Assembly: GCA_009786125.1 (NCBI GenBank)
Contig: WQTU01000139.1
Location: 8,483 to 72,482, forward strand
Source: Spirochaetota bacterium
GTDB taxonomy: Bacteria > Spirochaetota > Spirochaetia > CADAEX01
Direction: 5' to 3'
Length of the DNA: 64,000 nt
Every line of letters starts with the position of its first letter. Position 1 is the stretch's first letter. Under the pieces are notes generated by a model. The model saw only the letters and a program-made list of their open reading frames with translations, did no database searches and had not been told where the DNA came from. The translations under genes and the position numbers were made by a program. This document shows, in pieces, positions 4,394 to 58,692 of this stretch.

Positions 4394-4545
4394 ATTTAAA
4401 GCGTATCAAAATTGATACAACATGTCAAGCGATTATTTATAATCCCATATAAAACCTTTCACTGCGGATTTATAAGTTCCTTATCTGACATGGAAAAATC
4501 TTCGGCGAATTTTACTGTTGCTTTTCCCTTTAAAGTACCCAGTTC

Positions 4546-4640: not shown

Positions 4641-4702
4641 AGTTCGATGGCAAAGGTTTCTATGAGGGGTGGTGGTCATTGTTCAAATATTATGACATAA
4701 GT

Positions 4703-8542: not shown

Positions 8543-8714
8543 CGCCTCCTCCGGCTTTCAGCTTTTTTTGCATTTCGCGCAAAGCATCTAAATATGCTTT
8601 TTCTACATCAGTTAAATCATCCAAAAAAGCAATTTGCATATTTTGCACATTGCTTTTTCCGCCAAGTTTAATTGCGTCAACATTGCTGACACAATTTGGT
8701 ATCTGATTACTCAT
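8529..8714 (-). CDS. Small hypothetical protein (61 aa, Gly-rich C-terminus)
   Basis: ORF only. It is tightly packed between RhuM and hsdS (3-nt gap upstream, 14-nt overlap downstream). Confidence 0.25.
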   Translation of the reverse strand: MSNQIPNCVSNVDAIKLGGKSNVQNMQIAFLDDLTDVEKAYLDALREMQKKLKAGGGGGDE

Positions 8715-8717
8715 TTG

Positions 8718-9788: not shown

Positions 9789-9816
9789 AGATTCACCTTT
9801 AATTTATTCCACTCAC

Positions 9817-10530
9817 TCATTGACTTTTCCCCCTCATAGAATATCTCACAATCCATTTGCCGGTTTTATCAGCACCAACACGCTCTATAACCCCTGATTT
9901 TTTCAGTTGAGCAACATTGTATTCCACTCTACGTTTAGTTATTTGAATGGTACCTGCAATTTTTTCAGCAGTAATTTCAGGGTTTTCAATCATTAAGGCA
10001 ACAATTTTCGCTTTTAATTCATCCAATCTATAATTTACACCACCATTTACACCACCATCTAATGCTTCTTCCCTTTTATTGTTATTTCTGATATGAAAGC
10101 AAATTGAAAACATAGTTGCCAAAATATCAAATTCGGGCTCAGGAAGGTTATCGGCAATGCAGCCGCTTTTCATTTTTTCAATACCTCTTCCCCAAGCTTC
10201 AATTTGCCCGGAACGAAAATAATATTTTCCTCTAAAGCTGATGGCATTCGGGTGCAGGCTTATCTTTATGACAATATAATCTAAGCTTTTTTCTGTGTAC
10301 AAATTGACATCAGCTAAAATCCCCATTGTTGAGCGAATTTTATTAGGAAGCTCTTCCAACAATTTTGATGCATTTGATATTCCGACAACTACACCACGAT
10401 TGTTTTTGCCAATTTCAAGAACACCTCCCTGTGCATTAGCAAAACCGCAAATCCACTTCAGGTATTCGTCGCGCCAAGTCTCTTTCCATTCAACAATCTG
10501 ATTTTCTCGGCTTTTAACTTTTTTATTCAT
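9817..10530 (-). CDS. AlbA_2 (Schlafen-like) domain protein with C-terminal winged-HTH
   Basis: N-terminal [27 protein letters not shown] is AlbA_2-like. A C-terminal HTH is present. There is a 4-nt overlap with hsdM. Confidence 0.65.
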
Positions 10531-12104: not shown

Positions 12105-12250
12105 AAGTTTGCTCGCGACTCTCACTTATTCGGCGGATGTGCAAGCTCTGCAACATGGACGTCACTGCCTAGCAGTGGATCTGGCGCAGCGACACGGATG
12201 TCGCGATAAAGCGCCAGGCAGCTTGTCCGCGGTTCTTGCTCCGTCAGCGA
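12105..12250. repeat. GC-rich interspersed repeat, A-type module; inverted copy at ~53320-53440
   Basis: cgcgactctcacttattcggcggatgtgcaagctctgcaacatggacgt...ctggcgcagcgacacggatgtcgcgataaagcgccaggcagcttg is near-identical to the reverse complement of 53320-53440. The CTCACTTATTCGGCGGATG sub-module also occurs at 55673-55693 and, inverted, at 50140-50160. Confidence 0.8.
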
Positions 12251-20226: not shown

Positions 20227-20254
20227 ATAACGCTCTCCTTAGCCATTTATGATT

Positions 20255-21379
20255 TTACTTCTCATACTTGCATTTTTTGCCGCATTTTTTTGAAAAACCA
20301 ACTTTTAGTGAAGTCGTAACCTGAAGGGGATAGCTAAATATCTCAACCATTTCGCCGCCGATTTTCGGATTACTTGTATTGCTTACAAGCGTATATTGCG
20401 TAAGATTATTCAATAAACGCGGGATATAACCCTCATTGTTTGCATTAAAAATATCGAGTATCAGCTTGATACCGATTGAAGTAGCAAAATTTATATCGAC
20501 TGATATACCAGGCTCAAACTTTACTCCTTCGGTATTTTCTTGATTTGAGTATACATGATGATTGGCCTCGGCTCTTGACGAAAGGCCGCTGCCATCGCCT
20601 AAAGCGCACTCATAACATGGCAAGCCTTTTCCATACAGGTGATAAAAAATCTCACCAGCAAAAGCCCTTTCCCAAAATCCTATAGAAACAAAAGAGGATT
20701 GATAGTATATGCTGATTCTATTTGTGTACACGTCCGCAATGCGGTTGTCAGCACAGCCGATAAAAACTGTGTTTCCAGCTACACAAAACGAATCCATAGT
20801 TTCTTTTGGCAAATTCTGTACGATGCCTTCAAAAGTAATTACCTCTGCACTTGGATTAATATTAAGAATCTTTCTTTTGAGAGCATATACTTTAAAATCA
20901 CCAACATCTTCTATTCCGCATTGATGGCGGCAAATATTATGATATTCTACTATATCTGCATCAACCAAAATAAAATGCTTTACTCCAGCCCGTGCCAACT
21001 CCAGGGCAACCAGGCTGCCGACAGAGCCGCAGCCTAATATTATTGCTTTTTTTTGGCACATTATATCAGATTCTAATATCCCCTTGTTACGTGAGAATAT
21101 ATTTTGATAGAGGCTGTATATTTCACATTTTATTTTTTTTCCATAACTATAAAAATCTATACCTGCACTTGTAATAACTCCACACAGCTTGTTCTTGTTA
21201 CAATTACTGCCTTTCGGTAACACTTTTCCTAGAAGCTCTCCTTTACTTTCCAGTTCGGGAGGAAATACATTATATATGGCAGATTCTTTGTAATACCTGC
21301 CATATATATTCCTTTCATTTTGAGTACTTGCCTGTATGTCTGATATGAATACCGTCTTTTCCATTTGTGGTTTTTTCAT
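20255..21379 (-). CDS. ThiF/MoeB/E1-like adenylyltransferase (ubiquitin-activating-enzyme-like)
   Basis: Rossmann nucleotide loop KKAIILGCGSVGSLVALELARAGVKHFILVDADIVEYHNICRHQ is present, with downstream CxxC (CYEC) and conserved Cys candidates. Confidence 0.8.
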   Translation of the reverse strand: MKKPQMEKTVFISDIQASTQNERNIYGRYYKESAIYNVFPPELESKGELLGKVLPKGSNCNKNKLCGVITSAGIDFYSYGKKIKCEIYSLYQNIFSRNKGILESDIMCQKKAIILGCGSVGSLVALELARAGVKHFILVDADIVEYHNICRHQCGIEDVGDFKVYALKRKILNINPSAEVITFEGIVQNLPKETMDSFCVAGNTVFIGCADNRIADVYTNRISIYYQSSFVSIGFWERAFAGEIFYHLYGKGLPCYECALGDGSGLSSRAEANHHVYSNQENTEGVKFEPGISVDINFATSIGIKLILDIFNANNEGYIPRLLNNLTQYTLVSNTSNPKIGGEMVEIFSYPLQVTTSLKVGFSKKCGKKCKYEK

Positions 21380-21381
21380 TC

Positions 21382-22368
21382 CTATAAATCCTTGTTTTCA
21401 TTTCCTATACCGAACGCACGCAGTAAACCAGACTTAAATGTGACATCTGCGGGGTTAAAGTCTGTTAATAAATTGGTGAATAGCCCTGGGGTATATAAAT
21501 AGCAATCATCGTCATGAGAAAAAACAATCTGCTTCTTATGTGCAACATATATAAAGTGAATCATTGTAACAATGTTACTTGACCCTTTATGAGATAAGCT
21601 TAAAACTCCCTTGTTTTGTTCAATTTTCAAAGCCAATTTTCGATTTTCAGAAAAATATGTTATATCGTCCAGCAAAGAATCAATTAAAAAATCTCGATAT
21701 TTTTCAGCCTCTTCTGGCTTGTAATCATCTTTAGACAGTGTAGTTTTCTGTAATTTTCCTTTGATGCTAACAAGTAAACGTAAAAAATCTATTTCCGGTT
21801 TGTCAAAGGTTTTATTTCCGGAATATAATTTGTCAGCGTAACTATTTATATATCCAAGTGATTTTTCCGCATTTCTTAACGCAAGTAAATGTTCAGGGAT
21901 TAAGTTATCACCCACTTTATAAGCGATTTTAGTATATTTAAGGGGCCATGCTACATGATATGGCGTAATGCGGAACTTTGGATCAATATTAACCAAAACA
22001 GAAACAGCGCCATTGGCAGACATTTTAGCATAATCAGAGTTAGTTCCATCGTCTGTGGAAGAAAACTCGTCAAAAGAACCCGGATGCCTGTGCCATAGCC
22101 CAATTAAAGTCAATTTTGCTTGATATATCTGTACTAATTTGTTTATTAAATGTTCTGTATATTTTTTATCGTACTCGAAGTATGCAACTTGAAAAATCGC
22201 CTTTGGGCCTGGGTCTATTGCTTCTATGACATACCAATTCCCATTCTCAAAGCAGCCTAAAAATATTCCGCCGGTTTCGGTTTTTATTTTTTCTGAGGTT
22301 TCCGAAATAACCGCCGTGTATGCGCGATTAGAAAAAATCACCTGCATAATTTTCCCCCGTTGATACAT
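21382..22368 (-). CDS. JAB/MPN (JAMM) metallo-isopeptidase-like protein with ~200-aa C-terminal extension
   Basis: Perfect JAMM motif H-x-H-x7-S-x2-D in LIGLWHRHPGSFDEFSSTDD, with an upstream conserved Glu (VIEAID). Confidence 0.8.
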   Translation of the reverse strand: MYQRGKIMQVIFSNRAYTAVISETSEKIKTETGGIFLGCFENGNWYVIEAIDPGPKAIFQVAYFEYDKKYTEHLINKLVQIYQAKLTLIGLWHRHPGSFDEFSSTDDGTNSDYAKMSANGAVSVLVNIDPKFRITPYHVAWPLKYTKIAYKVGDNLIPEHLLALRNAEKSLGYINSYADKLYSGNKTFDKPEIDFLRLLVSIKGKLQKTTLSKDDYKPEEAEKYRDFLIDSLLDDITYFSENRKLALKIEQNKGVLSLSHKGSSNIVTMIHFIYVAHKKQIVFSHDDDCYLYTPGLFTNLLTDFNPADVTFKSGLLRAFGIGNENKDL

Positions 22369-22431
22369 ATAAGATATGCAAGTCTAATAACAATCAAACC
22401 TGCATAACTATCCTCCGCATGTAAATTCAGA

Positions 22432-22674
22432 TCAAATAAATCGATCTCGATTCGCTAAACAAAAATTGACAAATGCATCTTTTTTAACAACAAGCTTCAC
22501 TGGAAATGGTAGCCCCTGGTAAACTAAAGAGAATATTGCTTCCACTGCTTTGTCATTTTCAGCTGCCGCTAAAGCAGCAGGCCCTACTTTCTCCTGAAAA
22601 ATCTTTTGTATCTGAGGCCAATGCTCCTCAATAGTTTTCTCGATCTGCTTATTCAGCACATTTCCTAAATCCAT
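22432..22674 (-). CDS. Hypothetical small protein (80 aa) between E2-like and JAB genes
   Basis: ORF with tight packing. Mostly helical with a C-terminal beta-like segment. No C-terminal Gly. Confidence 0.35.
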   Translation of the reverse strand: MDLGNVLNKQIEKTIEEHWPQIQKIFQEKVGPAALAAAENDKAVEAIFSLVYQGLPFPVKLVVKKDAFVNFCLANRDRFI

Positions 22675-22692
22675 ACACCCTCCTCTATAGTC

Positions 22693-23208
22693 TTAGTACA
22701 CACCTTCTATTGCTACTTCGTCACTTACCTCTCCGTTGATCCACATTTCACACAACATTATCCATTTGCACGCCCAACTTAGAGAGGAGGCGGCTGATGT
22801 AGAACGAGTCTGCGATGCTTTAAAATATTTGGGGTCGGCAGTACATATAAAATACTCTTCGTTACGTCCGAAGTTATCGCGGTAAATATGCGGAAGCCCC
22901 AAGCCCAAACCCTTTTCAGGCTTAATCGGTAATGTTTTCGCTATATCAACGAGACGCGGTTTAACGGGCAAAATTTGAATTGAGCCGCCATACATACCTT
23001 CTTCTGCCTGGGGATGGGTATTTTTATAAATCAACATCAAATCCCAAACCATTCCGCCTTTTCCGGTTGGCTGAACCTTTCCGCGCCAATATAGCCTTCC
23101 CGAACCATCTTCGAGTTTATAGAGCTTAAACGATGGGAAATATTTCCCCATTGCCATCTGTTCAGCCTCTAACAAATCAGGGTCACTCTGATACCAATAA
23201 AATCCCAT
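22693..23208 (-). CDS. UBC/E2-like ubiquitin-conjugating-enzyme-fold protein
   Basis: YWRGKVQPTGKGGMVWDLMLIYKNTHP resembles the E2 W.G.I.GP..TPYEGG.F.L.I.FP..YP layout. LPHIYRDNFGRNEEYFICTAD resembles HPNIY..G.ICLD, with a candidate catalytic Cys. A strong RBS (AAGGAGG) precedes the start. Confidence 0.55.
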   Translation of the reverse strand: MGFYWYQSDPDLLEAEQMAMGKYFPSFKLYKLEDGSGRLYWRGKVQPTGKGGMVWDLMLIYKNTHPQAEEGMYGGSIQILPVKPRLVDIAKTLPIKPEKGLGLGLPHIYRDNFGRNEEYFICTADPKYFKASQTRSTSAASSLSWACKWIMLCEMWINGEVSDEVAIEGVY

Positions 23209-23209
23209 T

Positions 23210-23392
23210 TTAACCCCTCCTTGCCAATTTTCCGTCAGGCACCTGAATGGCTGTGTGCCCCTGTTCTTCTGCTTCGCTTTGAAATTCTACTTCACCGGAA
23301 GGGGTGACAACTACATCTTCTCCTCCGCGCAAGGCTGCTGCTAACGCACGGCGTCTTGCTGCGACAGCATCCTCATCCGCATTATTATTCAT
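23210..23392 (-). CDS. Small low-complexity protein (60 aa) ending in Gly; candidate Pup/Ubl-like modifier
   Basis: MNNNADEDAVAARRRALAAALRGG...GKLARRG-stop sits 1 nt upstream of the E2-like start. It is GC-richer than its surroundings. The C-terminal codons overlap the E2 RBS. Confidence 0.3.
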   Translation of the reverse strand: MNNNADEDAVAARRRALAAALRGGEDVVVTPSGEVEFQSEAEEQGHTAIQVPDGKLARRG

Positions 23393-23449
23393 ATTGAACC
23401 TCCTAAAATACTATATTGATGAATCAGTTACTGCTGAATAATTTCTTAA

Positions 23450-23680
23450 CTAGTTGTTGTTACCAGAAGTAACTATTACATCCGAATTATCATACTTTGC
23501 AGCTATTAAATCATTACGTCTTTTTGTAATAATAGCGGTATTAACTTCTGTTATGCGAATGCAATCAGTGAGAACATCAGAAGTAATACCCTCTTTTTTA
23601 TATGACAAGGAATCCTCTTTGATGTTTCCGATGATTTTTACAAGCAGCGACTTTTTCTTTTTTTTGATAACACCACCCAT
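23450..23680 (-). CDS. Small protein (76 aa), candidate beta-grasp/YukD-like ubiquitin-like protein
   Basis: Ubiquitin-sized. Hydrophobic periodicity is consistent with beta strands (SLLVKIIGNI, VLTDCIRITEV, SDVIVTSG). It ends ..TSGNNN. It lies 12 nt after the upstream gene. Confidence 0.3.
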   Translation of the reverse strand: MGGVIKKKKKSLLVKIIGNIKEDSLSYKKEGITSDVLTDCIRITEVNTAIITKRRNDLIAAKYDNSDVIVTSGNNN

Positions 23681-23692
23681 ACAAACTCTTGG

Positions 23693-24622
23693 TTATGCTG
23701 TCGCTCTTTCTCTAGGTTTTTTATCAAAATTTCTGATAATTTCACCATTAGCAGAAATAGTAACCACACTCTCGCGTAATCCTGCTTGAGCCGCTTTCTC
23801 GCCATTCTTAAGAACAGATTGAGCGTATGTATTGTCAAATAATTCGCTGCCTTGCTCGGCCAGCTTAGCCAAATCAACGCCCTTATTATTTTCCATAGCT
23901 AAGGTATATGCAAAATAGTCTCTCATTCGCCGAAGAGCATTTTCATCGCTTGCAATAATCTCATCACATTTCTTTATCTGCCTAAACCGCTTGATGAAAC
24001 GATATATGGTAATAATTGGACTTACAACAGCTAAAAAAAACCCAGAAATAATTCCCAAAAGAAAACCTCCCCCTATATCGCCATCGCGCCCCTTCGCACC
24101 TCCAAAGAAAGCACCTATCATTAATTTAACTATAGTTCCTAATGAAGCGCCAATGAAAACCAAAAAAATAGTGGCAAACACCATATCCTCGGGGAAATCT
24201 GAACCAGCAGTCAAACCTAAGCCAACAATCAAACCTAAAACAGCACCAACAACCATCCATATACGTTCTTTTTTTACTTGCTTCCTGAAAGCCGTAACAT
24301 TATCAATATTTTCCTGTACTAAAATAGCGGTGCATTTATAACACAAAGCAGTTCCAGCATAGTCACCGATACTTACGCCATATGTATCATAACAATCTCG
24401 ACAAATACCTGTTCCACATCCCCTGCATAATGCTGCTGCTTGTTTTGACGGATGGTGACCACACTCAATACCTGCTTCCAATACACACTCGCGGCATAAA
24501 CCTGCATATTTATTACCAGGTTTGCTAAAAAGATTAACACAATTTCTACAAATCCCCTTTCCGCATCTTTTGCATTGCGCTACTGCTTGTTCGTCTTCAT
24601 GAAAATAACATCCAATTGCCAT
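23693..24622 (-). CDS. Membrane protein with N-terminal tandem zinc-ribbon/B-box-like Cys clusters
   Basis: Cys clusters C-x2-H-x8-C-x2-C-x4-C-x2-C and C-x2-C-x7-C-HH-x9-C-x2-C-x4-C-x2-C are followed by 3-4 Gly-rich TM helices and a ~110-aa C-terminal domain. Confidence 0.6.
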   Translation of the reverse strand: MAIGCYFHEDEQAVAQCKRCGKGICRNCVNLFSKPGNKYAGLCRECVLEAGIECGHHPSKQAAALCRGCGTGICRDCYDTYGVSIGDYAGTALCYKCTAILVQENIDNVTAFRKQVKKERIWMVVGAVLGLIVGLGLTAGSDFPEDMVFATIFLVFIGASLGTIVKLMIGAFFGGAKGRDGDIGGGFLLGIISGFFLAVVSPIITIYRFIKRFRQIKKCDEIIASDENALRRMRDYFAYTLAMENNKGVDLAKLAEQGSELFDNTYAQSVLKNGEKAAQAGLRESVVTISANGEIIRNFDKKPRERATA

Positions 24623-24702
24623 TCTAATTTCCTCCTCAATTTCCTTGTGTGTTTATATCTAATGGTTATTGAACCGTATAGACCAAATTTATTTCCCGCA
24701 TT

Positions 24703-24975
24703 CTAAAATTTAACACGGCTGTATGAATCCAGTGATTCTGCCAATCTGTTCAGTTTTGGTTGCGCTGCTTCAAGCGGACCAATAGGCGATTCAATTAAAG
24801 CCGCAATTTTCACCATTAGATTACGGTATTGCTCTCCCTGATAGTCATTCCATTCAGCCGACTGTTGTGATGTCTGTCGGACATCTCTTACGGCTTTTGC
24901 CAGCTCTTTAATGATCGCACCAATATCAGCATTAATTTTACGAATTGCCTCTGAATTTGCTTTGACATTTGACAC
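24703..24975 (-). CDS. WXG100-like small helical-hairpin protein (paralog 1)
   Basis: 90 aa. Central ..AEWNDYQGEQYRNL.. Starts xxVxxxSEAIRK like its paralogs. Confidence 0.45.
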   Translation of the reverse strand: MSNVKANSEAIRKINADIGAIIKELAKAVRDVRQTSQQSAEWNDYQGEQYRNLMVKIAALIESPIGPLEAAQPKLNRLAESLDSYSRVKF

Positions 24976-24989
24976 AATATTCTCCTTTT

Positions 24990-25265
24990 CTATAAGTTGA
25001 CTTTTTCGTATTCTTCAAGCGTTTTGTAGATTTCAACCAGTTTCTCAAGGATCTCAAATAAAGCATCCTTTGGTTCCCGCAATTTATCTGTACACTCTTT
25101 CACGATAATTCCGAGCTGATTATATTTTTGATCTCTCCATCCTTGCCCTGCATCTTTGTAGCTTTGGTCCAACCTTAATGTTGACTTGCTTAAGTCCTGT
25201 ATAACTTCATTGCATATTTTTTCCGCTTTTCTTATAGCTTCTTTTCCGACTGAAACCTGTGCCAT
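24990..25265 (-). CDS. WXG100-like small helical-hairpin protein (paralog 2)
   Basis: 91 aa. Central ..GQGWRDQKYNQL.. N-terminal KEAIRKAEKI parallels paralog 1. Confidence 0.45.
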   Translation of the reverse strand: MAQVSVGKEAIRKAEKICNEVIQDLSKSTLRLDQSYKDAGQGWRDQKYNQLGIIVKECTDKLREPKDALFEILEKLVEIYKTLEEYEKVNL

Positions 25266-25286
25266 ACAAATTCTCCTTTAAAACTC

Positions 25287-26036
25287 CTAGAAATTCTCAC
25301 TTAAATACTTATCAACTGCAGCAATACATTTCTCAATATTGCCTACATTTTGTTCCGTGCCTGAAACTGCCTGTGTTTCAAATGATTTTGAAGCAGATAA
25401 CATTGTGTTTATATTGTCATTCATTTTTGCAAGGGAAGCATTCATTCTTTCCTGCTTATTTCTCAATCTGTCTAAAAACCTTTCAGTTGTGCGAAGTTCA
25501 TCTTCCTTTTTCGCTTTTTCGGCTTGTATCACATGTACTTTTTGTTGTAATTGTAAACCGCACTCTTTTAATTTGAATAATTCATTTTCTGAACTTCTGA
25601 TTTCAGACTCTGTTTGATATAATTGATTCCTTCTATCATCGATTTGCTTTTGGATTTTCTCTTTTACCTCGCCTTCTGCTCTTGCAGCGGCTTGTTCCAT
25701 TTCCGAAATTTGCTTCTTAATGTGCATAGCGTTTGTCTGATTAGCCGTTAAATCGTTTTGTGCTGATACCAGTTTTTGTTCTGTCGATTTTATTTCGTTA
25801 TTCATTTGATTTATTGTATCGGCAAGTCTATTTATTTCTGCTTTGTACTGATTAATTCTATTTGTTGTCTCCTCAATTTTTTGCTTGATTTTCTGCATTT
25901 CTAAGTCTGCGGATTTGGAAACAACAGATATTTGTTGCCCTATTCTTGTTGAAAAGCCCGAAATATCAATATAGTAATCATTAAGTGCGGCTTTTACTTT
26001 TGTAAGAGCGTCTTTTGAAACGCTAATTTCGGACAT
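25287..26036 (-). CDS. Coiled-coil protein (249 aa) with N-terminal WXG/LXG-like helical region
   Basis: Extended heptad-like Q/E/K-rich sequence. The N-terminus MSEISVSKDALTKVKAALNDYY resembles its small neighbours. Confidence 0.4.
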   Translation of the reverse strand: MSEISVSKDALTKVKAALNDYYIDISGFSTRIGQQISVVSKSADLEMQKIKQKIEETTNRINQYKAEINRLADTINQMNNEIKSTEQKLVSAQNDLTANQTNAMHIKKQISEMEQAAARAEGEVKEKIQKQIDDRRNQLYQTESEIRSSENELFKLKECGLQLQQKVHVIQAEKAKKEDELRTTERFLDRLRNKQERMNASLAKMNDNINTMLSASKSFETQAVSGTEQNVGNIEKCIAAVDKYLSENF

Positions 26037-36865: not shown

Positions 36866-37037
36866 CTATCCTTAACTCCTTCACCAGAGCATAGTTGTAC
36901 CATAATCAAAAATCAAAAGTGATATTTTTTACTGTTATGGACATTATTACACTAGATAATAAAATGAGGATAATAAAATATTATCAGAGAAAAGTCTACA
37001 AGTCAATTTTCTTTTTTTATTTTTTTATTGACCGACG

Positions 37038-37100
37038 AAGAGAGGGTCGCGGGCAAGCTAGCTTGCACATGACCGAGCGAGGAGGTCAAAAAAGTATTAT
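37038..37100 (+). repeat. GC-rich interspersed repeat, R2-type with GAGGAGG and AAAAAGTATTATAC tail
   Basis: gagagggtcgcgggcaagctagcttgcacatgaccgagcgaggaggtcaaaaaagtattatac. Copies at 43049-43104 (inverted) and 50344-50412. Confidence 0.8.
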
Positions 37101-37485
37101 ACATATAATACCTTTTCTCGATAAGCGCTCCTCCGGCCTTTTTAGGTGCATTTTTCCAGAAAATTCACCTTTGCTCACAATATTTCGCACTAAGGATGCC
37201 ATGTCATCCCGTTGAAAAACGGAATCCACACAATGGCCTCTCGGCTTCACGTCGCAACGAAGTTTCCAGCGAAATCGCGTGCGGCCAACTGGTAAAACCG
37301 GTGACAACCACCCTTCGGAAGGCTGGAGACTGGGATGCGAGCCATCCGCAGTGTCAGCGAGGACTCGGAGAGCAGCACAGTCGCAAGCCGCGCGATATCA
37401 CGGTCTTTGCACGATGAAAATTGATTTCCATGACAAAACCCATCTTTTAATTGTTAAAAAATAGACAATGTAGTAGTGTGAAAGC

Positions 37486-39405
37486 GTGGAATTTTTGCCA
37501 ATTACCATAGAAGAAGCAAAAAAACGGGGCTGGGGCGAGCTTGATTTTGTCCTGGTTACAGGCGATGCTTATGTGGATCACCCTTCGTTCGGGGCAGCTA
37601 TAATTGCCCGCGTGCTTGAAAACAAAGGATACAGCATTGGAATTATTGCCCAGCCAGAGACGGGAACAGGCAAGCCCGATGCGTTCAAGGTTTTTGGCAA
37701 GCCGAAGCTGGGTTTTCTCGTAACTTCCGGAAATATCGATTCAATGGTTGCGAAATACACCTCGTTCAAAAAAAAACGCAGCGAAGACCTTTATTCTCCC
37801 GGCGGCGCACCTGATAAGCGGCCGGAAAGAGCGCTTATCGCCTACACTTCTGCGATACGTCAGGCTTACGGCAATATCCCCGTAATTCTCGGCGGGCTTG
37901 AAGCATCTTTGCGAAGGCTCGCGCACTATGATTACTGGAGCAACTCCATTCGGCGCAGCATACTGATTGATTCAAAGGCAGATATTCTGGTTTACGGAAT
38001 GGCAGAGAAAAGCATAAAAGAGATAGCGCAACGCCTTAAACAAGGCGAAGCGATTAAAACCATTACCAATGTGCGCGGAACTGTGTGGAAAACTTCTGCT
38101 CGCCCCGAACCCGGCAGCGGCGGCAAGGCAATCGAGTTTCTGCTTTCTTTTGAAGAAGCTTCCAAAGAGAAAAAACTCTTTGCCCAAAATTTTGCCGCAG
38201 CTTACAAAAACAACGACCCCATCACAGCCTCTGTTCTTGCAGAACAGACCGGCAATCAATATGTTGTGCAAAACCAGCCCGCCTTCCCCCTTACAAGAGA
38301 AGAGCTCGACGCAGTATACAGCCTTCCATACACAAGAGAAGCCCACCCCTCTTATGACAGCAAAGGCGGAGTTCCGGCGTTACTGGAAGTAAAGTTCAGC
38401 ATCGCAAGTTCGCGCGGCTGCTTTGGAAGCTGCAGCTTTTGCGCGCTCGCTTTTCATCAGGGTAAAAGAGTAGTCAGCCGAAGCCATGATTCCATACTGA
38501 TGGAAGCCAGGCAAATTGCCAGCATGGCAGACTTTAAAGGTTATATCCACGATGTCGGCGGGCCAACAGCAAATTTCCGAAACCCTTCGTGCAAAAAGCA
38601 GCTTGAAAAAGGAAGCTGCAGCCGCAGATGCCTAACGCCATCACCCTGCAAAAATCTTGAAGTAAGCCACAAGGAATATGTTGAGCTGTTAAGAAAATTA
38701 AGAAAAGTTGAGAAGGTTAAAAAAGTATTTATACGCTCCGGAATAAGGTTTGATTATCTACTGCTCGACCCGGATGTTGCGTCCAATAAAGCAGGGAATT
38801 TTCTGGAAGAACTTTGCGAGCACCACATAAGCGGGCAGCTTAAAGTAGCGCCTGAGCATATCTCCAACAAAGTGCTTGAGCTTATGGGCAAACCAAACAG
38901 AAAAATCTACGAAGAGTTCGTGATGCGATTTAAAAAAGAGAATGCACTGCTGGGGAAAAAGCAATATCTTATTCCATATTTTCTTTCTGCGCATCCCGGA
39001 TCAACTCTGGAAGATGCAATTGAGCTTGCCCTGCATCTTAAGGAAAGCAGATATATCCCGGATCAGGTGCAGGATTTTTACCCTACTCCGGGCACTCTTT
39101 CAAGCTGCATCTATTACACAGGATTAGATCCGCTAACTTTGAAAAAAGTCCATGTTCCGCTAACCGAAGAAGAAAAGAAAATGCAGAAAGCGCTAATTCA
39201 TTATAACAGGCCGGAAAACTATAATCTTGTTCGCAAAGCTCTTGAGAAAGCAAACCGCAAAGATTTAATCGGAAACCATTCAGGCGCGCTCATACCGCAC
39301 TGGAACAAGACAAAACCCGGCGACAGCGCTCGCTCTGCGAAGTCAAGCCCCAAACCTGCCAATAGCTCCCGCGGCGCAGCCCCCCGCAAAGCAAAGTCAA
39401 AGTAA
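37486..39405 (+). CDS. ygiQ: YgiQ-family (UPF0313) radical SAM protein
   Basis: N-terminus LPITIEEAKKRGWGELDFVLVTGDAYVDHPSFGAAIIARVLE is near-canonical for YgiQ. A radical-SAM Cys cluster is present. C-terminal basic Ser/Lys/Ala-rich tail. Confidence 0.9.
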   Translation: MEFLPITIEEAKKRGWGELDFVLVTGDAYVDHPSFGAAIIARVLENKGYSIGIIAQPETGTGKPDAFKVFGKPKLGFLVTSGNIDSMVAKYTSFKKKRSEDLYSPGGAPDKRPERALIAYTSAIRQAYGNIPVILGGLEASLRRLAHYDYWSNSIRRSILIDSKADILVYGMAEKSIKEIAQRLKQGEAIKTITNVRGTVWKTSARPEPGSGGKAIEFLLSFEEASKEKKLFAQNFAAAYKNNDPITASVLAEQTGNQYVVQNQPAFPLTREELDAVYSLPYTREAHPSYDSKGGVPALLEVKFSIASSRGCFGSCSFCALAFHQGKRVVSRSHDSILMEARQIASMADFKGYIHDVGGPTANFRNPSCKKQLEKGSCSRRCLTPSPCKNLEVSHKEYVELLRKLRKVEKVKKVFIRSGIRFDYLLLDPDVASNKAGNFLEELCEHHISGQLKVAPEHISNKVLELMGKPNRKIYEEFVMRFKKENALLGKKQYLIPYFLSAHPGSTLEDAIELALHLKESRYIPDQVQDFYPTPGTLSSCIYYTGLDPLTLKKVHVPLTEEEKKMQKALIHYNRPENYNLVRKALEKANRKDLIGNHSGALIPHWNKTKPGDSARSAKSSPKPANSSRGAAPRKAKSK

Positions 39406-39421: not shown

Positions 39422-40723
39422 CTACGTTAGCTCTTTTGTTTTTCCTGCGAGATACAATGGAATATTCGTAAATCTTTCGCCCCTATGATATTCATTTTTT
39501 GAGTAGAGCACTGCTTTTTTTGGCGAGTATTTGTCCAGATACTTACTGAAACTGGCTGATTGCACATTTCCGCTGCTTTTTACCTCAACAGGAATTATGT
39601 TTAAGCTCTCTTGCAGCAAAAAATCAATCTCGTTTGCAGTTGTCTCCTTTTGAGAGAAAAATTTCGGCTCAACATCAAACATATCGCGTATCTGCTGCAA
39701 AACATAGTTTTCGGTCAAAGGTCCCTTAAATTGATAATCAAATTTTATTAGTATTGCCTCGTTACTGACACCGGCTGAGTGTTTTAACAAGCCTGTATCA
39801 AACATGAATAATTTAAAGTTCCCCGGTTGCTGAAAAACATTCAACGGATGTTCATTTTTACTAACATTGCAAACTCGTATAACCATGCCTGCCGAGACAA
39901 GCCATTCGATAGCTTCTTCAAACTCTCTTGCGCGCGCTCCTTCTTTTACGCAACCGTAGATAAATTTTTCGTTTGCTTTTGCAAGCTGGGTTACTATGCT
40001 GCGAAAAACAAGAAGTATTCGTCCGCTGTTAATCTTTCCGTTGTACTTTGAAAAATCATTTTCATAAAGCGTTAAAAGCTCGCTTTGAACCTGCTTAACT
40101 TTTTCCGGGTCTTTTGTATTTACCCATGTTAAAACACATTCCGGCATACCGCCGATTATAAGATAATAGTTATACGCTTCCAGTAACTTATTGTGGAATA
40201 TTTTTTCGATTGGCGTTTCTTTGTTTATTGAATTGTAATAGCCGTAAAGCGGTTCGTCAATTGCTGCCAGAAATTCATCAAAAACAAGGGGATATACGTT
40301 GATTATATTTACTTTTCCAACCGGATAAGATTTGGGCTGGCTAAGAAGCGTGCCCAACATACTGCCCGCCGAAACAATGTGATAATCATTCGCTTTCTCG
40401 CAAAAGTATTTTAAACTGTTCAGCGCCTCGGGACATTCCTGTATCTCGTCAAAAACTATTAAATGCTTTTTAGGCTCAATTTTCTTTCCGCTCAACATGC
40501 CAAGGCGTTCAATTATGCGCAGAGGATCTTTGTTTGTCTGGAATATTGAGCCCAACGCCTCTTCTTCGTCAAAGTTAAAAACAAAGGTATAATCGTAATA
40601 AAGCTTGCCAAACTCGTGCATTACCCAGGTTTTGCCTGTTTGCCGGGCGCCTTTAAGCACAACAGGTTTCCTGTTTGGGCTGTTTTTCCAGTTTAAAAGC
40701 GTGTTTAATACATTTCTCTTCAC
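39422..40723 (-). CDS. AAA+ ATPase, COG1373/DUF4143 family
   Basis: P-loop VVLKGARQTGKTW. Length and architecture are typical of ATPase + DUF4143. Confidence 0.8.
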   Translation of the reverse strand: MKRNVLNTLLNWKNSPNRKPVVLKGARQTGKTWVMHEFGKLYYDYTFVFNFDEEEALGSIFQTNKDPLRIIERLGMLSGKKIEPKKHLIVFDEIQECPEALNSLKYFCEKANDYHIVSAGSMLGTLLSQPKSYPVGKVNIINVYPLVFDEFLAAIDEPLYGYYNSINKETPIEKIFHNKLLEAYNYYLIIGGMPECVLTWVNTKDPEKVKQVQSELLTLYENDFSKYNGKINSGRILLVFRSIVTQLAKANEKFIYGCVKEGARAREFEEAIEWLVSAGMVIRVCNVSKNEHPLNVFQQPGNFKLFMFDTGLLKHSAGVSNEAILIKFDYQFKGPLTENYVLQQIRDMFDVEPKFFSQKETTANEIDFLLQESLNIIPVEVKSSGNVQSASFSKYLDKYSPKKAVLYSKNEYHRGERFTNIPLYLAGKTKELT

Positions 40724-40809: not shown

Positions 40810-40900
40810 TTGATAGCCTCTCGGCTTCACGTCGCAACGAAGTCGTGTTTTTCGTCTGCGTCCGCACCCAAGACTCTGGTGTCCTGCCTATAAACTGGTA
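40810..40900. repeat. GC-rich intergenic element (R3-type, GCCTCTCGGCTTCACGTCGCAACGAAGT)
   Basis: The 28-nt core is identical to 37238-37266. Confidence 0.7.
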
Positions 40901-42556: not shown

Positions 42557-43171
42557 TTATGCAGATTTAAATACCCGCAAGTGATAGCCATAAAGAACAG
42601 GAATAACTTCTCCTCTGTGTTCCCGTGTTTCTTTTAGTCTTGCCACCACAATAAGCCCGGAATTCAGCGCGATTTCCATGGGACCAGGCGCGCCTCTGCG
42701 TCTTTCGGGAAACATGGCTTGAAACTCTCTGCCGCTAAAGACAATTATGGCTCTGAAGATTAAAACATCGGAAACCCCTACCCACTCCCCGTCTATAAGC
42801 TCGATCTCAACAGTATAAGTGGCTGGCGTGTTGTCAATAACAGTAAAAGAAACAAAAGAACCATTCAGGATAAGGTATCTATTTCGGACAGGTCCCAAGT
42901 CTCCGCTTTGCACATGGGCTGTAAGCTCTCTCATGGATATTCCAAAATTAACATAATTATCAAAACCGGGCGCAGAGCCGGCAAAAAGAGCGCTGCTGCA
43001 ACATATAAAAAGTATTATACCGCAGAGCAATCCCTGTGGTATAATACTTTTTGTTAGCCTCCTCACTCGGTCATGTGCAAGCTCTGCTTGCCCGCGGTTC
43101 TCGCTACGGCGGCTAATAAAAAACAGAAAAAAAGGAGCAAAAATTCTTTTTTGCATTAAATATTCCTCCAA
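42557..43171 (-). CDS. Hypothetical secreted/lipoprotein-like protein (5-prime end uncertain)
   Basis: Signal-like segment LLCGIILFICCSSALFAGSA. The first ~40 codons of the track ORF run through an R2 repeat and a 12-bp inverted repeat and are probably not coding. Confidence 0.4.
   Translation of the reverse strand: MEEYLMQKRIFAPFFLFFISRRSENRGQAELAHDRVRRLTKSIIPQGLLCGIILFICCSSALFAGSAPGFDNYVNFGISMRELTAHVQSGDLGPVRNRYLILNGSFVSFTVIDNTPATYTVEIELIDGEWVGVSDVLIFRAIIVFSGREFQAMFPERRRGAPGPMEIALNSGLIVVARLKETREHRGEVIPVLYGYHLRVFKSA
43049..43104 (-). repeat. GC-rich interspersed repeat, R2-type (inverted copy)
   Basis: The reverse complement reads agccgccgtagcgagaaccgcgggcaagcagagcttgcacatgaccgagtgaggagg, followed by ctaacaaaaagtattatacc. 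Confidence 0.8.
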
Positions 43172-49960: not shown

Positions 49961-50084
49961 TTATGGCAACTAATTATAATCAAATTTTAGACTTTTTTCC
50001 ACAATTTTTATATATTAATACAGCAAATTAATATAGCAAAAAATACTTATTTAAACAGAAAAAAAATGATAATTTGTATTTCTG

Positions 50085-50420
50085 AAAGAAGCGAGAGTCG
50101 CGCCGAAGCCGGACCCGAAGGGGACGTGCTTGCACGGGCATCCGCTGAATAAGTGAGGGTCGCGGGCGTGCTTGCACGCACATGACCGAACGATGAGGTG
50201 GACAAAGAGGCTTTGCCTCTTATGTACCGAGCGAATGAGGAAACAAATGGTCGCGTACGCGTACCCCGCAGCTTTGGCTGCGGAGCATGCGCCGTAGGCG
50301 CAGGGTGTGCAGGGCAAAGCCCTGCGGTATTCGTCGACGAAACGAGAGTTGCGGGCAAGCAAAGCTTGCACATAACCGAGTGAGGAGACGAACACGAGGT
50401 ATAATACCATTTATTTGATT
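50085..50420. repeat. Cluster of GC-rich interspersed repeat modules (R5-inverted, R1, R2, then GGTATAATACC) upstream of lysC
   Basis: catccgctgaataagtgag (inverse of CTCACTTATTCGGCGGATG). R1 at 50176-50239 (gcacatgaccgaacgatgaggtggacaaag..cttatgtaccgagcgaatgagg). R2 at 50344-50387. tataat at 50401-50406, ~45 nt before the lysC ATG. Confidence 0.85.
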
Positions 50421-53289: not shown

Positions 53290-53520
53290 TTGAGTCCCAC
53301 AAATTTATTTCTGAATGGAGCGAAAGCCGCAAGCAAGCTGCCTGGCGCTTTATCGCGACATCCGTGTCGCAGCGCCAGACACAACGTCCATGTTGCAGAG
53401 CTTGCACATTCGCCGAAGAAGTGAGTGTCGCGGACGTGCTTGCAAGCACATGACCAAACGATAAGGTGGACAAAGGCACTATGCTCCTTATGTACTGAGC
53501 GAGTGAGGCGCCTAAAAAGA
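53290..53520. repeat. GC-rich interspersed repeat cluster (A-type inverted + R5-inverted + R1)
   Basis: 53320-53440 is the reverse complement of the 12105-12250 element. R1 copy at 53447-53508 (gcacatgaccaaacgataaggtggacaaaggcactatgctccttatgtactgagcgagtgagg). Confidence 0.85.
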
Positions 53521-55508: not shown

Positions 55509-55555
55509 ATTTATTTATACCAATTTTTCGAATAATTTCAAATCTTTTTTTATAT

Positions 55556-55590
55556 AAAAGGTATCATACCGCGGTATGATACCTTTTGTT
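55556..55590. promoter_or_regulatory. Perfect 24-bp palindrome GGTATCATACCGCGGTATGATACC flanked by A4/T4 (operator-like or bidirectional hairpin) in the rtcB/formyltransferase divergent intergenic region
   Basis: Direct reading aaaaggtatcataccgcggtatgataccttttg. Related GGTATAATACC/GGTATTATACC palindromes at 50399-50409 and 57486-57496. Confidence 0.6.
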
Positions 55591-55591
55591 T

Positions 55592-55720
55592 CCTCACGCG
55601 CTCGGTTCACAAGTGGCATAGCCCCTTTGCCCACCTCATCGTTCGGTCATGTGCAAATTACATTTGCCCGCAACTCTCACTTATTCGGCGGATGAGCGTG
55701 CTTGCACGTCGCGACACTCG
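55592..55720. repeat. GC-rich interspersed repeat (R1 inverted copy + R5 module)
   Basis: The reverse complement of 55592-55654 reads gcacatgaccgaacgatgaggtgggcaaaggggctatgccacttgtgaaccgagcgcgtgagg. ctctcacttattcggcggatg at 55673-55693. Confidence 0.85.
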
Positions 55721-55835
55721 CTTTGTTCGGAAATAAAACAAGAGATATACGAACAGCATAAATTATGCCTTGACCATGTTGTGTTTAATCAAGTAAAGTG
55801 CTTGAATATGTATTATGAATATTTTTATTTGAATT

Positions 55836-57483: not shown

Positions 57484-57498
57484 ATGGTATTATACCAT

Positions 57499-58692
57499 TT
57501 ATTTACTCTCTCGTTCTGTCATAGCATTAATGTAAATATCTTTTATTATTTCAATTGTTTTGTCTTCATTAAAATTTTCAAGACAATGTTTTTTTGCATT
57601 TGTCCCAAGTTCTTTTCTTATATCATCGTTTGTTAATAAACAATACATTTTCTCTGCAAATTTTTCACAATCATTAAGTTCCACAAGATATCCATTATAA
57701 TTATCCACAATAACTTCATTTGTCCCAATTACATTTGTCCCAATACATGGAATCGAATAATACATAGATTCCATTAGACTGCGCGGCATCCCTTCGTTAA
57801 TCGAAGTCAATACAGAAATATCAGCAATTTCAAGGTACTCTGCTACTTCTTTCCGCTGTAATTTCCCTGTAAAAACAACATTTTCAGACAAGTTATATTG
57901 CGTTACTATTTTCTCCAAATACTGGTATTCGCCTTCCCCTATGATATAAATTATAAATTTATTGTATTGATACTGAGTTCTTAATAAATTGGCAACTTCT
58001 AACAGCATTTTATGATTCTTAACCGGCTCTATTCTAGCAACGCATATAATTATTTTTACATCATTGTCTCTGCTGCCGGAGATTCCGCTAAAATGATCAA
58101 AATTTATTCCATTTTTTATCATGTGGAATTTAGTTTTTTTGGGTTTAAACTTCATGGACAATTCATACTCATATTTGTTTTGGAACAAAAGTGCATCGGT
58201 TATAAATGCCAGCATTTTCTCTATCCAGTAAAATATTTTTCTTTTAAATCCTTTCAGTCTAAAAAAATAGTATCCATGAACCTGGTGTATTATATATATT
58301 TTCTTTTTTCTGAATAAATTTATATACCAACACACAATTCTTCCAAGCGCACCTGCTTTGGAAGTATGGGTATGAATAATATGGGGAGAGTTGTTTTTAA
58401 TAATTTTATATAATTCAACAAACTCGCAAATAATATTAAAAATCCCAAGTTCCCTGCTAATTTTCATTGTTAAAACCGGAACACCTGCTTCTGCAATTCG
58501 GTGCGCCTCTTCGCCTTCCGGGCAAATTATTGAATTATTAAATCTTATATCATTATGAACCATTTTTACACGACTAAAAAGAAGCCTTTCCGCGCCTTTT
58601 CCGGTATTTATGAAATCAATTACTTGAATTTTATTCATCTTATATTTTCTCCAAATTAAGGTTTTTAAATCTTCCGGTGCTTTTTGCTTCAA
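57499..58692 (-). CDS. Glycosyltransferase family 4 (GT-B, retaining)
   Basis: E-x7-E region EGMPRSLMESMYYSIPCIGTNVIG. 4-nt overlap with the downstream epimerase gene. Confidence 0.8.
   Translation of the reverse strand: MKQKAPEDLKTLIWRKYKMNKIQVIDFINTGKGAERLLFSRVKMVHNDIRFNNSIICPEGEEAHRIAEAGVPVLTMKISRELGIFNIICEFVELYKIIKNNSPHIIHTHTSKAGALGRIVCWYINLFRKKKIYIIHQVHGYYFFRLKGFKRKIFYWIEKMLAFITDALLFQNKYEYELSMKFKPKKTKFHMIKNGINFDHFSGISGSRDNDVKIIICVARIEPVKNHKMLLEVANLLRTQYQYNKFIIYIIGEGEYQYLEKIVTQYNLSENVVFTGKLQRKEVAEYLEIADISVLTSINEGMPRSLMESMYYSIPCIGTNVIGTNEVIVDNYNGYLVELNDCEKFAEKMYCLLTNDDIRKELGTNAKKHCLENFNEDKTIEIIKDIYINAMTERESK

Follow-up and report, generated by a model that had tools for sequence, protein, structure and literature searches.

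The GC-rich repeats scattered through this spirochaete DNA are copies of one small element of ~90-110 nt with no genes of its own, and form a new family within a well-known type of selfish DNA repeat. We infer, with moderate confidence, a gene-less mobile hairpin element that most likely moves as a single strand, strand-specifically, through an enzyme of the IS200/IS605 type acting in trans. The family is apparently undescribed, its sequence having no match in Rfam, among phages or plasmids, or in the literature. Throughout, the window denotes the whole 64,000-nt stretch of DNA analysed.

Repeat family and architecture of the element

All of the repeats picked out in a preliminary description of this DNA were recovered at or near their reported positions, and they are real, not due to chance. 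A 19-nt core, ACATGACCGAGCGAGGAGG, occurs five times with ≤3 mismatches (0 expected from 100 shuffles), palindromes of the AAAGGTATAATACC type occur eight times against 0.6 expected, and across the window a covariance model detected six cores without interruption (E-values 1e-13 to 1e-25). Element sites number six in the window, with a seventh 8 kb further on the same contig, a density of six or seven per 82 kb.

The modules into which the repeats had been divided were likewise found as pairwise matches: R1 relates 50139-50240 to 53407-53508 (84%) and, inverted, 50178-50258 to 55574-55654 (85%); R2 occurs at 37038-37094, 50151-50207 and 50328-50409, with an inverted copy at 43037-43118; R5 relates 12108-12147 to 55663-55702; and the A-type module matches between 12114-12242 and 53317-53432 (inverted, 89-94%). 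R3 also recurs (37233-37263 and 40813-40843, 97%) but is part of a different GC-rich element (37220-37414). The scheme of separate modules had to be given up, however: R1, R2 and R5 are segments of a single element and junctions between nested copies, and a single element with nesting resolves the five-module puzzle. The best reading of the "arrays" is that entire elements lie within other copies, after the CAT of the host rod, because the inner copies are as complete as a free-standing copy (own tail included) and the outer copy matches an uninterrupted copy at another locus (L024:1705-1800).

The element consists of three parts: a closing helix (P1) of 5-6 bp starting from the element's first base, a 63-nt imperfect rod, and an AT-rich tail hairpin (ACAAAAGG...CCTTTTAT) ending in TTTTAT, with whose final base the element stops. 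Along the rod follow, in order, a purine-rich GACGA/GAGGA loop, a 2-bp R-Y/R-Y helix, a GAG/GA loop, GGUCG/UGACC, C.A and G.A mismatches, and finally GCAAGC-loop-GCUUGC; extra GC-rich hairpins are tolerated in the rod loops and in the tail. The stems covary, with 92.5% of cells pairing (versus ~31% when partners are slid) and double changes at 16 of 20 pairs, values reached in none of 500 shuffles. The folded (sense) strand is identified by G.U pairs, one of them invariant and further ones in P1. Under RNA parameters the rod is the minimum-energy fold (z-scores -2.7 to -6.2); under DNA parameters the full rod is not, and both strands fold about equally well. Across phyla, conservation of the core is far above that of P1, loop and tail.

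Copies in the window

Array D (50080-50414, + strand) occupies 335 nt of the lysC promoter region and is made up of an outer element with another nested in it, a cluster of GC-rich hairpins, and one more element, D5. It starts 4 nt downstream of the native lysC extended -10 (TGaTAATTT, 50067-50075, +), which is conserved in three related spirochaete genomes (aTGaTATAAAT, aTGgTATATAT and aTGaTATATAT in L030, L031 and L033, respectively); the whole 335-nt block is missing from the orthologous intergenic region in all three. The 5' part of the outer element (50080-50141, +) contains the P1 5' strand (TTTC), the J5' strand and the 5' side of the rod, carries a 21-nt GC-rich mini-insert and ends in ...GGGCAT; from 50123 onward the outer element is 91.5% identical to a composite copy in L028. 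The complete nested element (50142-50223, +) has P1 CCGCT/GGTGG, the rod and the tail ACAAAGAGGC-TTT-GCCTCTTAT, and was matched by the covariance model at 50138-50209 (72.7 bits). The outer element then resumes at 50224-50244 (+) with GTACCGAGCGAATGAGGAAAC, representing the J3' strand and the P1 3' strand and nearly identical to the 3' part of both the uninterrupted L024 copy and the L028 copy. The hairpin cluster (50245-50330, +), supported by RNA folding, lies within or after the outer tail and had no homologue by BLAST among the fetched loci. D5 (50331-50414, +) is a complete simple element with left flank GGTAT, P1 TCGTC/GACGA and tail ACACGAGGTATAATACCATTTAT, which holds TATAAT at 50400-50405; its covariance-model match (50327-50399, 92 bits) is the best in the window. 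The spurious antisense 119-aa ORF of array D, used to look for further copies of the element, matched nothing but itself.

Copies B and C are simple elements. Copy B (37029-37116, +, 84.5 bits) has left flank TTTTTTTAT, P1 TGACC/GGTCA and tail AAAAAGTATTATACATATAATACCTTTT. Copy C (43005-43115, - strand, 111 nt, 85.7 bits under the covariance model) is an in-frame insertion in the part of a small secreted protein's gene that encodes the signal peptide (ATG at 43156), inside the 204-aa ORF upstream of which it had previously been placed. Its length is a multiple of three, amounting to a 37-codon insert, and its removal restores MQKRIFAPFFLFFICCSSALFAG..., the reading frame and the length seen in the L033 orthologue, which lacks the copy and represents an empty site. 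The 60-aa N-terminus containing copy C, searched for more copies, yielded nothing.

The remaining sites are arrays in various states of preservation. Array F (55554-55732, -, 81.6 bits) has an outer P1 TTTCC/GGAAA, a nested inner element at ~55609-55691 and a tail forming a perfect 14-bp hairpin (AAAAGGTATCATACC-GC-GGTATGATACCTTTT); the nested arrangement is its minimum-energy fold, and the rtcB start codon lies 46 nt downstream of its end. Array E (53309-53515, +, 54 bits), located between convergent genes, carries a ~100-nt expansion (the A-type module) at the outer rod tip and an inner element at 53410-53491, and is decaying, with mutated conserved junction bases, a broken outer P1 and a lost outer tail. 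Array A (12108-12250, -) is a 3'-truncated relic that retains the 5' half of the outer element, A-type expansion included, plus ~40 nt from the start of an inner copy; its left flank is CTCAT, the era stop codon (TGA) falls in the element's first bases, and it is 91% identical to L023:1820-1909. Outside the window, a copy in L035 is also decaying (56.6 bits) and is possibly a second in-gene case. A look-alike of the tail palindrome lies between convergent stop codons at 57484-57504.

Insertion sites and distribution

The two orthologous empty sites, at array D and at copy C, indicate that the copies are insertions and, along with copies found elsewhere, bear out the earlier proposal of MITE- or REP-like interspersed elements. 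Local duplication, which the preliminary description had set against that proposal, is not the case, with copies present on other contigs and in other phyla.

Insertions share a left flank, which is TTAT in 13 of 22 aligned copies (a motif at ~1% of window positions) and CAT in all six nested copies; the forms observed are (T)TTAT, ATTAT, GTTAT, GTAT and CAT. The right end is always (C)TTTTAT. Since the left-flank variants are not mirrored there, the shared motif is not a target duplication, and the right-end T-run can be assigned to the element because it pairs with an internal A-run. Flank comparison accordingly revealed no target duplication, though at copy C, the one fully clean empty site, both readings fit. 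Terminal inverted repeats are likewise absent: no copy has ends (TCGCCGACG... and ...CCTTTTAT) that are reverse complements of each other.

Homologues come from termite-gut MAGs and metagenomes of 33-67% GC and belong to Spirochaetota, Bacillota (loci L009/L013) and Actinobacteria (loci L002, L005 and L007). Many of these copies are at contig ends, as expected of a multicopy repeat. Close relatives (L030, L031 and L033) have no element at orthologous sites or in 3 x 21 kb, and in one genome (L022, L025) the element is carried as a passenger in a separate, genuine MITE with 20-bp inverted repeats. Viral contigs scanned with the core pattern gave 0 matches, array D had no BLASTN match among plasmids and phages, and literature on termite or Treponema repeats and on the core sequence held nothing relevant.

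A compact, strongly structured mobile element common to several phyla in one habitat could serve as a marker for horizontal exchange within termite guts. It also presents a practical hazard for annotation, generating spurious GC-rich ORFs and 5' extensions and leaving assemblies broken; in this contig it has split a signal peptide, replaced the era stop codon and placed a 335-nt structured leader between the lysC -10 and the gene. These effects on the host (the lysC leader, the signal-peptide insert and the era stop) look incidental.

Proposed mechanism of movement

We propose that one strand of the element would be transferred as single-stranded DNA by "peel-and-paste", catalysed by an HUH (Y1) transposase supplied in trans, which would make the element a derivative resembling a PATE (palindrome-associated transposable element). 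In the folded element, the cleavage sites would fall one at either end of stacked helices. New copies land immediately 3' of TTTAT, ATTAT or GTTAT, or of CAT in an existing rod, and landing inside existing copies produces the nested "arrays". TTTAT and TTCAT are the transposon-adjacent motifs (TAMs) of the IS200/IS605 elements ISGst2 and ISGst5, and gene-less PATEs exist (bioRxiv 10.1101/2023.03.14.532601); IStrons related to IS200/IS605 insert after TTGAT, ATTAT or TTTAT (PMC4227781).

Pfam scans of window ORFs, together with precomputed Pfam families for the contig extensions, found no gene for a Y1 transposase, TnpB, IS110-type enzyme, reverse transcriptase or recombinase in the window plus an 18-kb extension (82 kb of the 181-kb contig). 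ORF listings for the other loci showed no obvious transposase-type gene beside the copies, and the Rfam IS605/HEARO-type RNA models did not match the element. IS608 and ISDra2 have a known lagging-strand bias, which is not evident in the orientations of the few copies here: GC skew is negative across the whole window, suggesting a single replichore, and copies point both ways, three + and three - (A-, B+, C-, D+, E+, F-), numbers at which post-insertion selection could blur a bias. Should the transposase be identified, the conserved rod, which has tandem G.A pairs, would be unusual as a structure recognised by a single-strand transposase.

Alternative explanations

The element might instead be a functional RNA family, each copy being an sRNA gene or a cis-acting leader whose rod binds a protein or RNA polymerase, with the tail as terminator or its TATAAT as an outward promoter, and with lysC, rtcB and ygiQ regulated. 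Strong covariation, conserved unpaired purines, sense-strand G.U pairs, the RNA-parameter fold of the rod and the superior conservation of the core across phyla all favour such a role, as do a consensus TTGACA-17-TATACT promoter ending 7 nt before the element in L013, the native lysC -10 box ending 4 nt before array D, and the co-orientation of 7 of 10 informative copies with local transcription. We nevertheless regard it as unlikely, given that the downstream genes are mutually unrelated (hsdM, ygiQ, lysC, rtcB, a lipoprotein gene and tRNA flanks), that copy C is within a coding sequence, that three copies (one in L023, two in L024) are antisense to both neighbours, and that the element is missing from close relatives, both at orthologous sites and throughout the 3 x 21 kb surveyed. 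Most copies have no promoter-like site upstream, our scan showed neither promoters nor canonical terminators at elements, the copies at E and in L035 are decaying, and nested copies retain an internal "terminator" that would be senseless in a single RNA. Rfam 15 gave 0 matches at gathering score for the window, 0 at E≤10 for array D and only noise for 36950-37500; Rfam matches in other loci (tRNA, SRP RNA and NiCo riboswitch) never corresponded to the element, and a tRNA/tmRNA scan of the window and of actinobacterial loci with tRNA-3'-like flanks found nothing. A riboswitch or cis leader was rejected in view of the unrelated neighbours, the copy in a coding sequence, the three doubly antisense copies and absence from orthologous leaders. 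The tail was likewise rejected as an intrinsic terminator, its T-run being paired with the A-run inside the stem and the scan flagging none.

The regulatory roles suggested in the preliminary description fare similarly, and neither donation of promoters or ribosome-binding sites nor an sRNA role is supported. GAGGAGG is a conserved, structural part of the rod and is too distant from start codons (62 nt in the case of lysC) to be placed as a ribosome-binding site. The tail hairpin often has TATAAT, yet a two-hexamer scan gives no promoter at elements; the native extended -10 of lysC is upstream of array D, and rtcB has its own -10/-35-like pair downstream of the element. Against a dispersed sRNA family stand the consensus promoter found before only one copy (L013), the copy in a coding sequence, the decaying copies and the absence of any Rfam match. 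Orientation toward genes persists as a tendency (7 co-oriented versus 3 anti-oriented informative cases), but it is automatic in four intergenic regions because those regions are divergent.

Other routes of spread seem less probable still. REP/BIME-type repeats kept by a domesticated RAYT, as in enterobacteria and pseudomonads, are also extragenic GC-rich imperfect palindromes that cluster and show compensatory stem changes, but here no conserved GTAG-type tetranucleotide marks the hairpin foot, clustered copies are all direct and never inverted doublets, four of the six sites are in divergent (promoter) regions and not at gene 3' ends, REPs are species-specific while this core is shared by several phyla, and the 82 kb hold no RAYT gene. 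We therefore consider this origin quite improbable; of the earlier MITE/REP-like designation, the mobility stands and the specific link to REP and RAYT does not. A further scenario, to which we give very little credence, is a retroposed, SINE-like RNA, in which a transcript running from the start site to a U-rich 3' end is copied into TTTAT sites by a reverse transcriptase that uses nicked, A-rich target DNA for priming. In L013 and at lysC the element begins at a predicted transcription start, at its 3' end a hairpin precedes UUUUAU, the TTTAT common to the left flank and the 3' end would permit micro-homology priming, and the conserved rod, which folds best as RNA, could be a recognition structure for the enzyme. 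No reverse transcriptase gene was seen in the window plus 18-kb extension, however, the tail does not qualify as an intrinsic terminator, most copies are promoterless, copies are nested inside other copies, and we know of no retroposition mechanism of this sort for short non-coding elements in bacteria. More broadly, there is a slim chance that the rod is a functional RNA that spreads through an RNA intermediate (SINE-like) or through an enzyme class new to such elements, which would explain the RNA-best fold of the rod, the two 5' ends at -10 boxes and the lack of an evident replication-strand bias. An ordinary MITE of a DDE transposase, bounded by terminal inverted repeats and a target-site duplication of fixed length, would account for the identical TTTTTAT on both sides of copy C, and in one genome the element does travel in a genuine MITE (L022, L025). 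The element's own ends (TCGCC... / ...CCTTTTAT) are nonetheless not inverted repeats, the left-flank variants are not duplicated at the right end, and the right-end T-run, paired with the internal A-run, is element-owned, which makes this explanation highly improbable.

Comparison with known systems

Judged against the known consensus sequences, the defining features of the K-turn, box C/D, sarcin-ricin and hammerhead motifs, and of integron attC sites, CsrA sponges, group II intron domain V and Helitron/IS91 elements, are absent. GC clusters of yeast mitochondria offer an analogy only: they too are GC-rich hairpins scattered over an AT-rich background, and they insert at AT-rich sites and within one another, though in another domain of life and with other sequences. 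By description, the pneumococcal BOX element (boxA-boxB(n)-boxC) is similar in its variable internal hairpin modules, pairing ends, intergenic location and capacity to affect neighbours. BOX modularity consists of tandem boxB copies, whereas the modules described here are best explained as whole elements nested in others, and BOX is restricted to one genus. Rickettsia palindromic elements (RPEs) are hairpin-folding sequences of ~100-150 nt in an AT-rich genome that can lie in frame in protein genes without breaking them. Copy C recalls them in its in-frame position (again compared by description), but RPEs occur only in Rickettsia and have no defined target motif, while our family has one clear in-gene case. 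REP/BIME repeats resemble the element as clustered, GC-rich imperfect palindromes outside genes that are probably handled as single-stranded DNA, and differ in that the present family spans several phyla, favours promoter-side intergenic regions and has neither the GTAG-type motif nor inverted doublets.

The left- and right-end palindromes of IS200/IS605 elements resemble each other, whereas here the GC-rich rod bears no similarity to the AT-rich tail; moreover, the hairpins of IS608 lie 10-20 nt inside the element ends, while those described here abut them. Compared with PATEs, the 5' structure is distinctive in being a long conserved rod with purine-rich internal loops that differs from the 3' hairpin. 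In other respects the element is like PATEs: both are non-coding multicopy elements that lack terminal inverted repeats and leave no target duplication, both have same-strand hairpins near both ends (here the rod and the tail hairpin), and PATEs are moved in trans, as we propose for the present element. Both also insert directly 3' of a T-rich pentanucleotide, and the flanks of our element match the published TAMs TTTAT, TTCAT and ATTAT.

The repeats are copies of a single hairpin element

The preliminary description had listed five GC-rich repeat modules (R1, R2, R3, R5 and the A-type) and read them as MITE- or REP-like. Its observation is confirmed, and its interpretation was right in part. 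Self-comparison of the window (38% GC) recovered every listed repeat: a 19-nt core (ACATGACCGAGCGAGGAGG) occurs five times at three or fewer mismatches versus zero in 100 shuffles, and the AAAGGTATAATACC-type palindrome occurs eight times versus 0.6 expected. The repeats are held by six GC-rich blocks, A (12108–12250, minus strand), B (37029–37116, plus), C (43005–43115, minus), D (50080–50414, plus), E (53309–53515, plus) and F (55554–55732, minus). Alignment of the simplest copies from the window and other genomes shows a single unit instead of separate modules. The repeats are MITE- or REP-like, and copies spread far outside this window.

In these copies a left flank (...TTTAT) is followed by the 5' strand of a closing helix, P1 (TCGCC), a conserved imperfect hairpin, the rod (GACGAA-RY-GAG, then G-GUCG-C-G-G-GCAAGC-loop-GCUUGC-A-C-A-UGAC-C, then GA-RY-GAGGA), the 3' strand of P1 (GGCGA) and an AT-rich tail hairpin (ACAAAAGG-loop-CCUUUUAU) that terminates the element. 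RNAalifold on a MAFFT alignment folds the unit into one long imperfect hairpin closed by P1. The sequence of P1 varies between copies with complementarity kept (pairs seen include TTCGCC/GGCGAA, TTGACC/GGTCAA, TTAGCC/GGCTAA, TTCGTC/GACGAA, TTTCC/GGAAA, TTCACC/GGTGAA and CCCC/GGGG), and the two R-Y dinucleotides covary (GC/GC, AC/GU, AU/AU). Across 21 distinct copies in a covariance-model alignment, whose fitting to the model somewhat inflates pairing, 92.5% of cells paired versus ~31% with partners slid by 1–3 columns, two-sided changes occurred in 16 of 20 pairs, and none of 500 shuffles matched the observed values; the independent MAFFT/RNAalifold result agrees with this pairing. The unpaired purine-rich strands are near-invariant (GACGA opposite GAGGA; GAG opposite GA) and might associate through tandem sheared G.A pairs. 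The sense strand alone is the folded one, as shown by one invariant G.U pair and by others in P1.

The arrays D (upstream of lysC), E and F are best read as nested copies. In all three, and in loci L028 and L014 from elsewhere, the host rod is broken directly 3' of ...CAT by a sequence with all parts of a free-standing element (P1 CCGCC/GGTGG, rod, ACAAAG-hairpin-CTTAT tail and closing ...TTAT), after which the host resumes as G(T)ACCGAGCGAATGAGGAAAC and ends in its own tail. An uninterrupted copy (L024:1705–1800) matches the host part on either side of the interruption, and F shows the same nesting in its minimum-energy fold. The element can target its own rod. R5 is therefore the point where the host CAT joins the start of an inner copy; R1 combines the 3' end of the inner copy with the resumed host, and R2 is a simple copy. 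The A-type module is a ~100-nt expansion at the rod tip (in A, E and L023), and large GC-rich hairpin clusters occupy the tail loop in D (50245–50330), L013 and L026. The composite has itself spread (84–85% likeness among D, E and F; 91.5% identity between D and L028), and L020 resembles one that has undergone an internal deletion.

R3 does not belong to this family. It is part of a second, unrelated GC-rich conserved element (37220–37414 and 40813–40843; L024 1586–1892), which has no Rfam match; two of its segments are 80–89% identical to L024, where the second element is split by a main-element copy. Another occurrence of R3 is next to an AAA_14/DUF4143 ATPase gene (39422–40723) that is absent between ygiQ and the DHFR gene in a related spirochaete (L033).

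Insertion sites, ends and host genes

Comparison with relatives shows that the copies are insertions. The window belongs to a termite-gut Spirochaetota MAG, judging by the organism names that NCBI gives for its LysC and by the contig's record (ENA ERZ27257345 k141_4339100, 181 kb). At lysC, three related spirochaetes (LysC 72–82% identical) share the flanking genes, but the space between them is short: aTGaTATAAATATTATTCGTCAATTT in L030 versus aTGaTAATTTGTAT-[335 nt]-TTGATTCGTCAATTC in the window, which places the start of D 4 nt downstream of the conserved extended -10 box of lysC. No element copies were found in 3 x 21 kb of these relatives. Copy C lies inside a gene: the ORF from ATG 43156, which follows a GGAGG ribosome-binding site, encodes MQKRIFAPFFLFFI-[37 residues from the element]-ICCSSALFAGSAPGFDN, and its L033 orthologue (55% identical) reads MNKNLFIFFIIFISYSAALTAQEAPGFDN. 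The 111-nt insert is a multiple of three and stop-free in the ORF's frame, and its removal restores a normal signal peptide that matches the orthologue in length. Copies decay after insertion. One decayed copy ~8 kb past the window's right end on the same contig (L035 3672–3768) forms the 5' end of another gene for a secreted protein: both its annotated GTG start and its positively charged N-terminal region (…RKLTK…) come from the element, whose rod mismatches are 'repaired' to a perfect 14-bp stem. The TGA that stops the era ORF is part of the opening bases of relic A (TCGCTGA; 12244–12250), so this insertion replaced the gene's original 3' end.

In a model-anchored alignment, the four bases 5' of P1 were TTAT in 13 of 22 copies (background ~1% of window positions), and each of the six nested copies had CAT before P1. 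The right end is (C)TTTTAT in every copy; the tail hairpin has an A-run at its base, and the T-run of the right end pairs with it. Since deviant left flanks (ATTAT in L016, L020 and L023; GTTAT in L026; GTAT in D; CAT in nested copies) leave the right end unchanged, the shared motif reflects target preference plus an element-encoded end, not target-site duplication. Terminal inverted repeats are absent from the element ends. Each copy is thus a gene-less insertion that lies 3' of a T-rich motif and has a hairpin structure specific to one strand, and we regard a mobile, non-autonomous insertion family as highly probable.

Relic A also marks the upstream edge of a defence island (510–12068, minus strand), where it is truncated. 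The island is built on a type I restriction-modification system (hsdR, 510–3740; hsdS, 7442–8542; hsdM, 10527–12068) and includes, all on the minus strand, an OLD-type ATPase/TOPRIM gene (5820–7445) and a UvrD-like helicase (4703–5830) that look like a Gabija pair, RhuM (8718–9788), a Schlafen/AlbA_2 protein (9817–10530) and a Gp49/HTH pair (3747–4393). An 89-nt direct repeat (3585–3673 and 4552–4640; 85% identical, 967 nt apart) lies in the Gp49/HTH region. A further minus-strand cluster (15946–26036), encoding a 1426-aa FtsK/SpoIIIE-like protein, one ThiF (E1-like) and one prokaryotic JAB protein plus several ORFs without a Pfam match, may be a ubiquitin-like defence or conjugation-type island.

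Distribution across termite-gut bacteria

Scanning one genome per species for an exact pattern produced nine matches, which by our own estimate is near chance level for the pattern; only four carry the whole element, all from termite-gut MAGs: Bacillota Emb289P3bin92 (one copy), Propionibacteriaceae Md513_bin21 (two) and Bifidobacteriaceae Md513_bin114 (one). The prefix Emb289 occurs in a study of higher-termite gut MAGs (PMC7024585), and Md513 in one on the termite Mastotermes darwiniensis and its Mixotricha paradoxa holobiont (PMC12483993). A metagenome scan gave 16 true copies from four JGI data sets, one being the Emb289 sample, in backgrounds of 33%–56% GC; many sit at contig ends, the signature of a multicopy repeat. 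The search pattern was narrow, so termite guts are to be taken as the family's minimum range and its confinement to them as apparent, not proven.

Several copies lie directly downstream of tRNA genes. The actinobacterial copies (L002 2157–2267, L005 5399–5510, L007 2115–2245) have a tRNA-3'-end-like P1 5' strand, GGTTCAAATCCTGTCACCCCGA, followed in L002 and L005 by a degenerate repeat of it; no tRNA gene was called at these three copies. A 112-nt block is 94% identical between the Bifidobacteriaceae and Propionibacteriaceae MAGs of the same sample. In Ga0123353 (~53% GC) the element is a passenger in a MITE of ~290 bp, which is bounded by perfect inverted repeats of 20 bp (TAGACCTGTCCACTAACCTA) and found in at least eight places (L022 12540–12748; L025 2560–2830; contig ends of L012, L015, L017, L019, L021 and L027); the L025 copy is directly upstream of a NiCo riboswitch.

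Regulatory readings

The repeats had also been proposed to donate promoters or ribosome-binding sites, or to form a dispersed sRNA family. GAGGAGG belongs to the rod structure and is 62 nt away from the ATG of lysC, which argues against ribosome-binding-site donation. TATAAT is frequent in the tail, yet a promoter scan finds no two-hexamer site there, and direct reading of the sequence gives rtcB its own TTGAAA-16-TATAAA pair between element and ATG. The scan flagged no canonical terminators at the tail. Promoter donation and an sRNA family are not supported either. The Rfam scan matched no family; phage and plasmid searches and the literature likewise gave no match to the element sequence. 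Orientation toward genes is automatic in the four divergent intergenic regions. In the contexts that are informative, seven copies run in the direction of transcription (A, C, L035, L013, L023 after tRNA-Leu, L026, and L028 after tRNA-Asn) versus three antisense to both neighbours (L023:10697–10769, L024:1713–1785, L024:5364–5433).

A solitary palindrome, AAATGGTATTATACCATTTAT (57484–57504), near-identical to the element tail, sits exactly between two convergent stop codons. Either it is a bidirectional terminator native to the site, which the tail happens to resemble, or an element has left it behind as a solo remnant.

Mobility and relation to known elements

An IS200/IS605-type mechanism, for which we infer the enzyme, is a tentative reading that we consider possible. 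On the folded strand, the left cleavage site would be the start of P1 and the right one the end of the tail, and stacking of the P1 and tail helices might bring the element ends together. Several observations count against it: the rod and tail hairpins are dissimilar and both abut the element ends, no TnpA was seen in 82 kb (the window plus an 18-kb contig extension), both orientations are present on an apparent single replichore, and folding favours the complete rod under RNA parameters, not under DNA parameters. In the TTTCC subfamily (DNA fold, L024 1705–1730), the left-flank TTTATT is complementary to AATAAA of the 5' junction strand directly before the rod, which recalls the guide-to-cleavage-site pairing of IS608, though the complementarity does not extend to all subfamilies.

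In behaviour, the nearest known systems are IS200/IS605 elements and their derivatives without genes, the palindrome-associated transposable elements (PATEs). TTTAT and TTCAT are the motifs next to ISGst2 and ISGst5, and mobilisation of PATEs takes place in trans (bioRxiv 10.1101/2023.03.14.532601); IStrons, which are related to IS200/IS605, insert after TTGAT, ATTAT or TTTAT (PMC4227781). The element is a new family of an already known kind of element, unusual in its conserved purine-rich rod, its self-nesting, its in-frame residence in signal peptides and its cross-phylum spread within one habitat.
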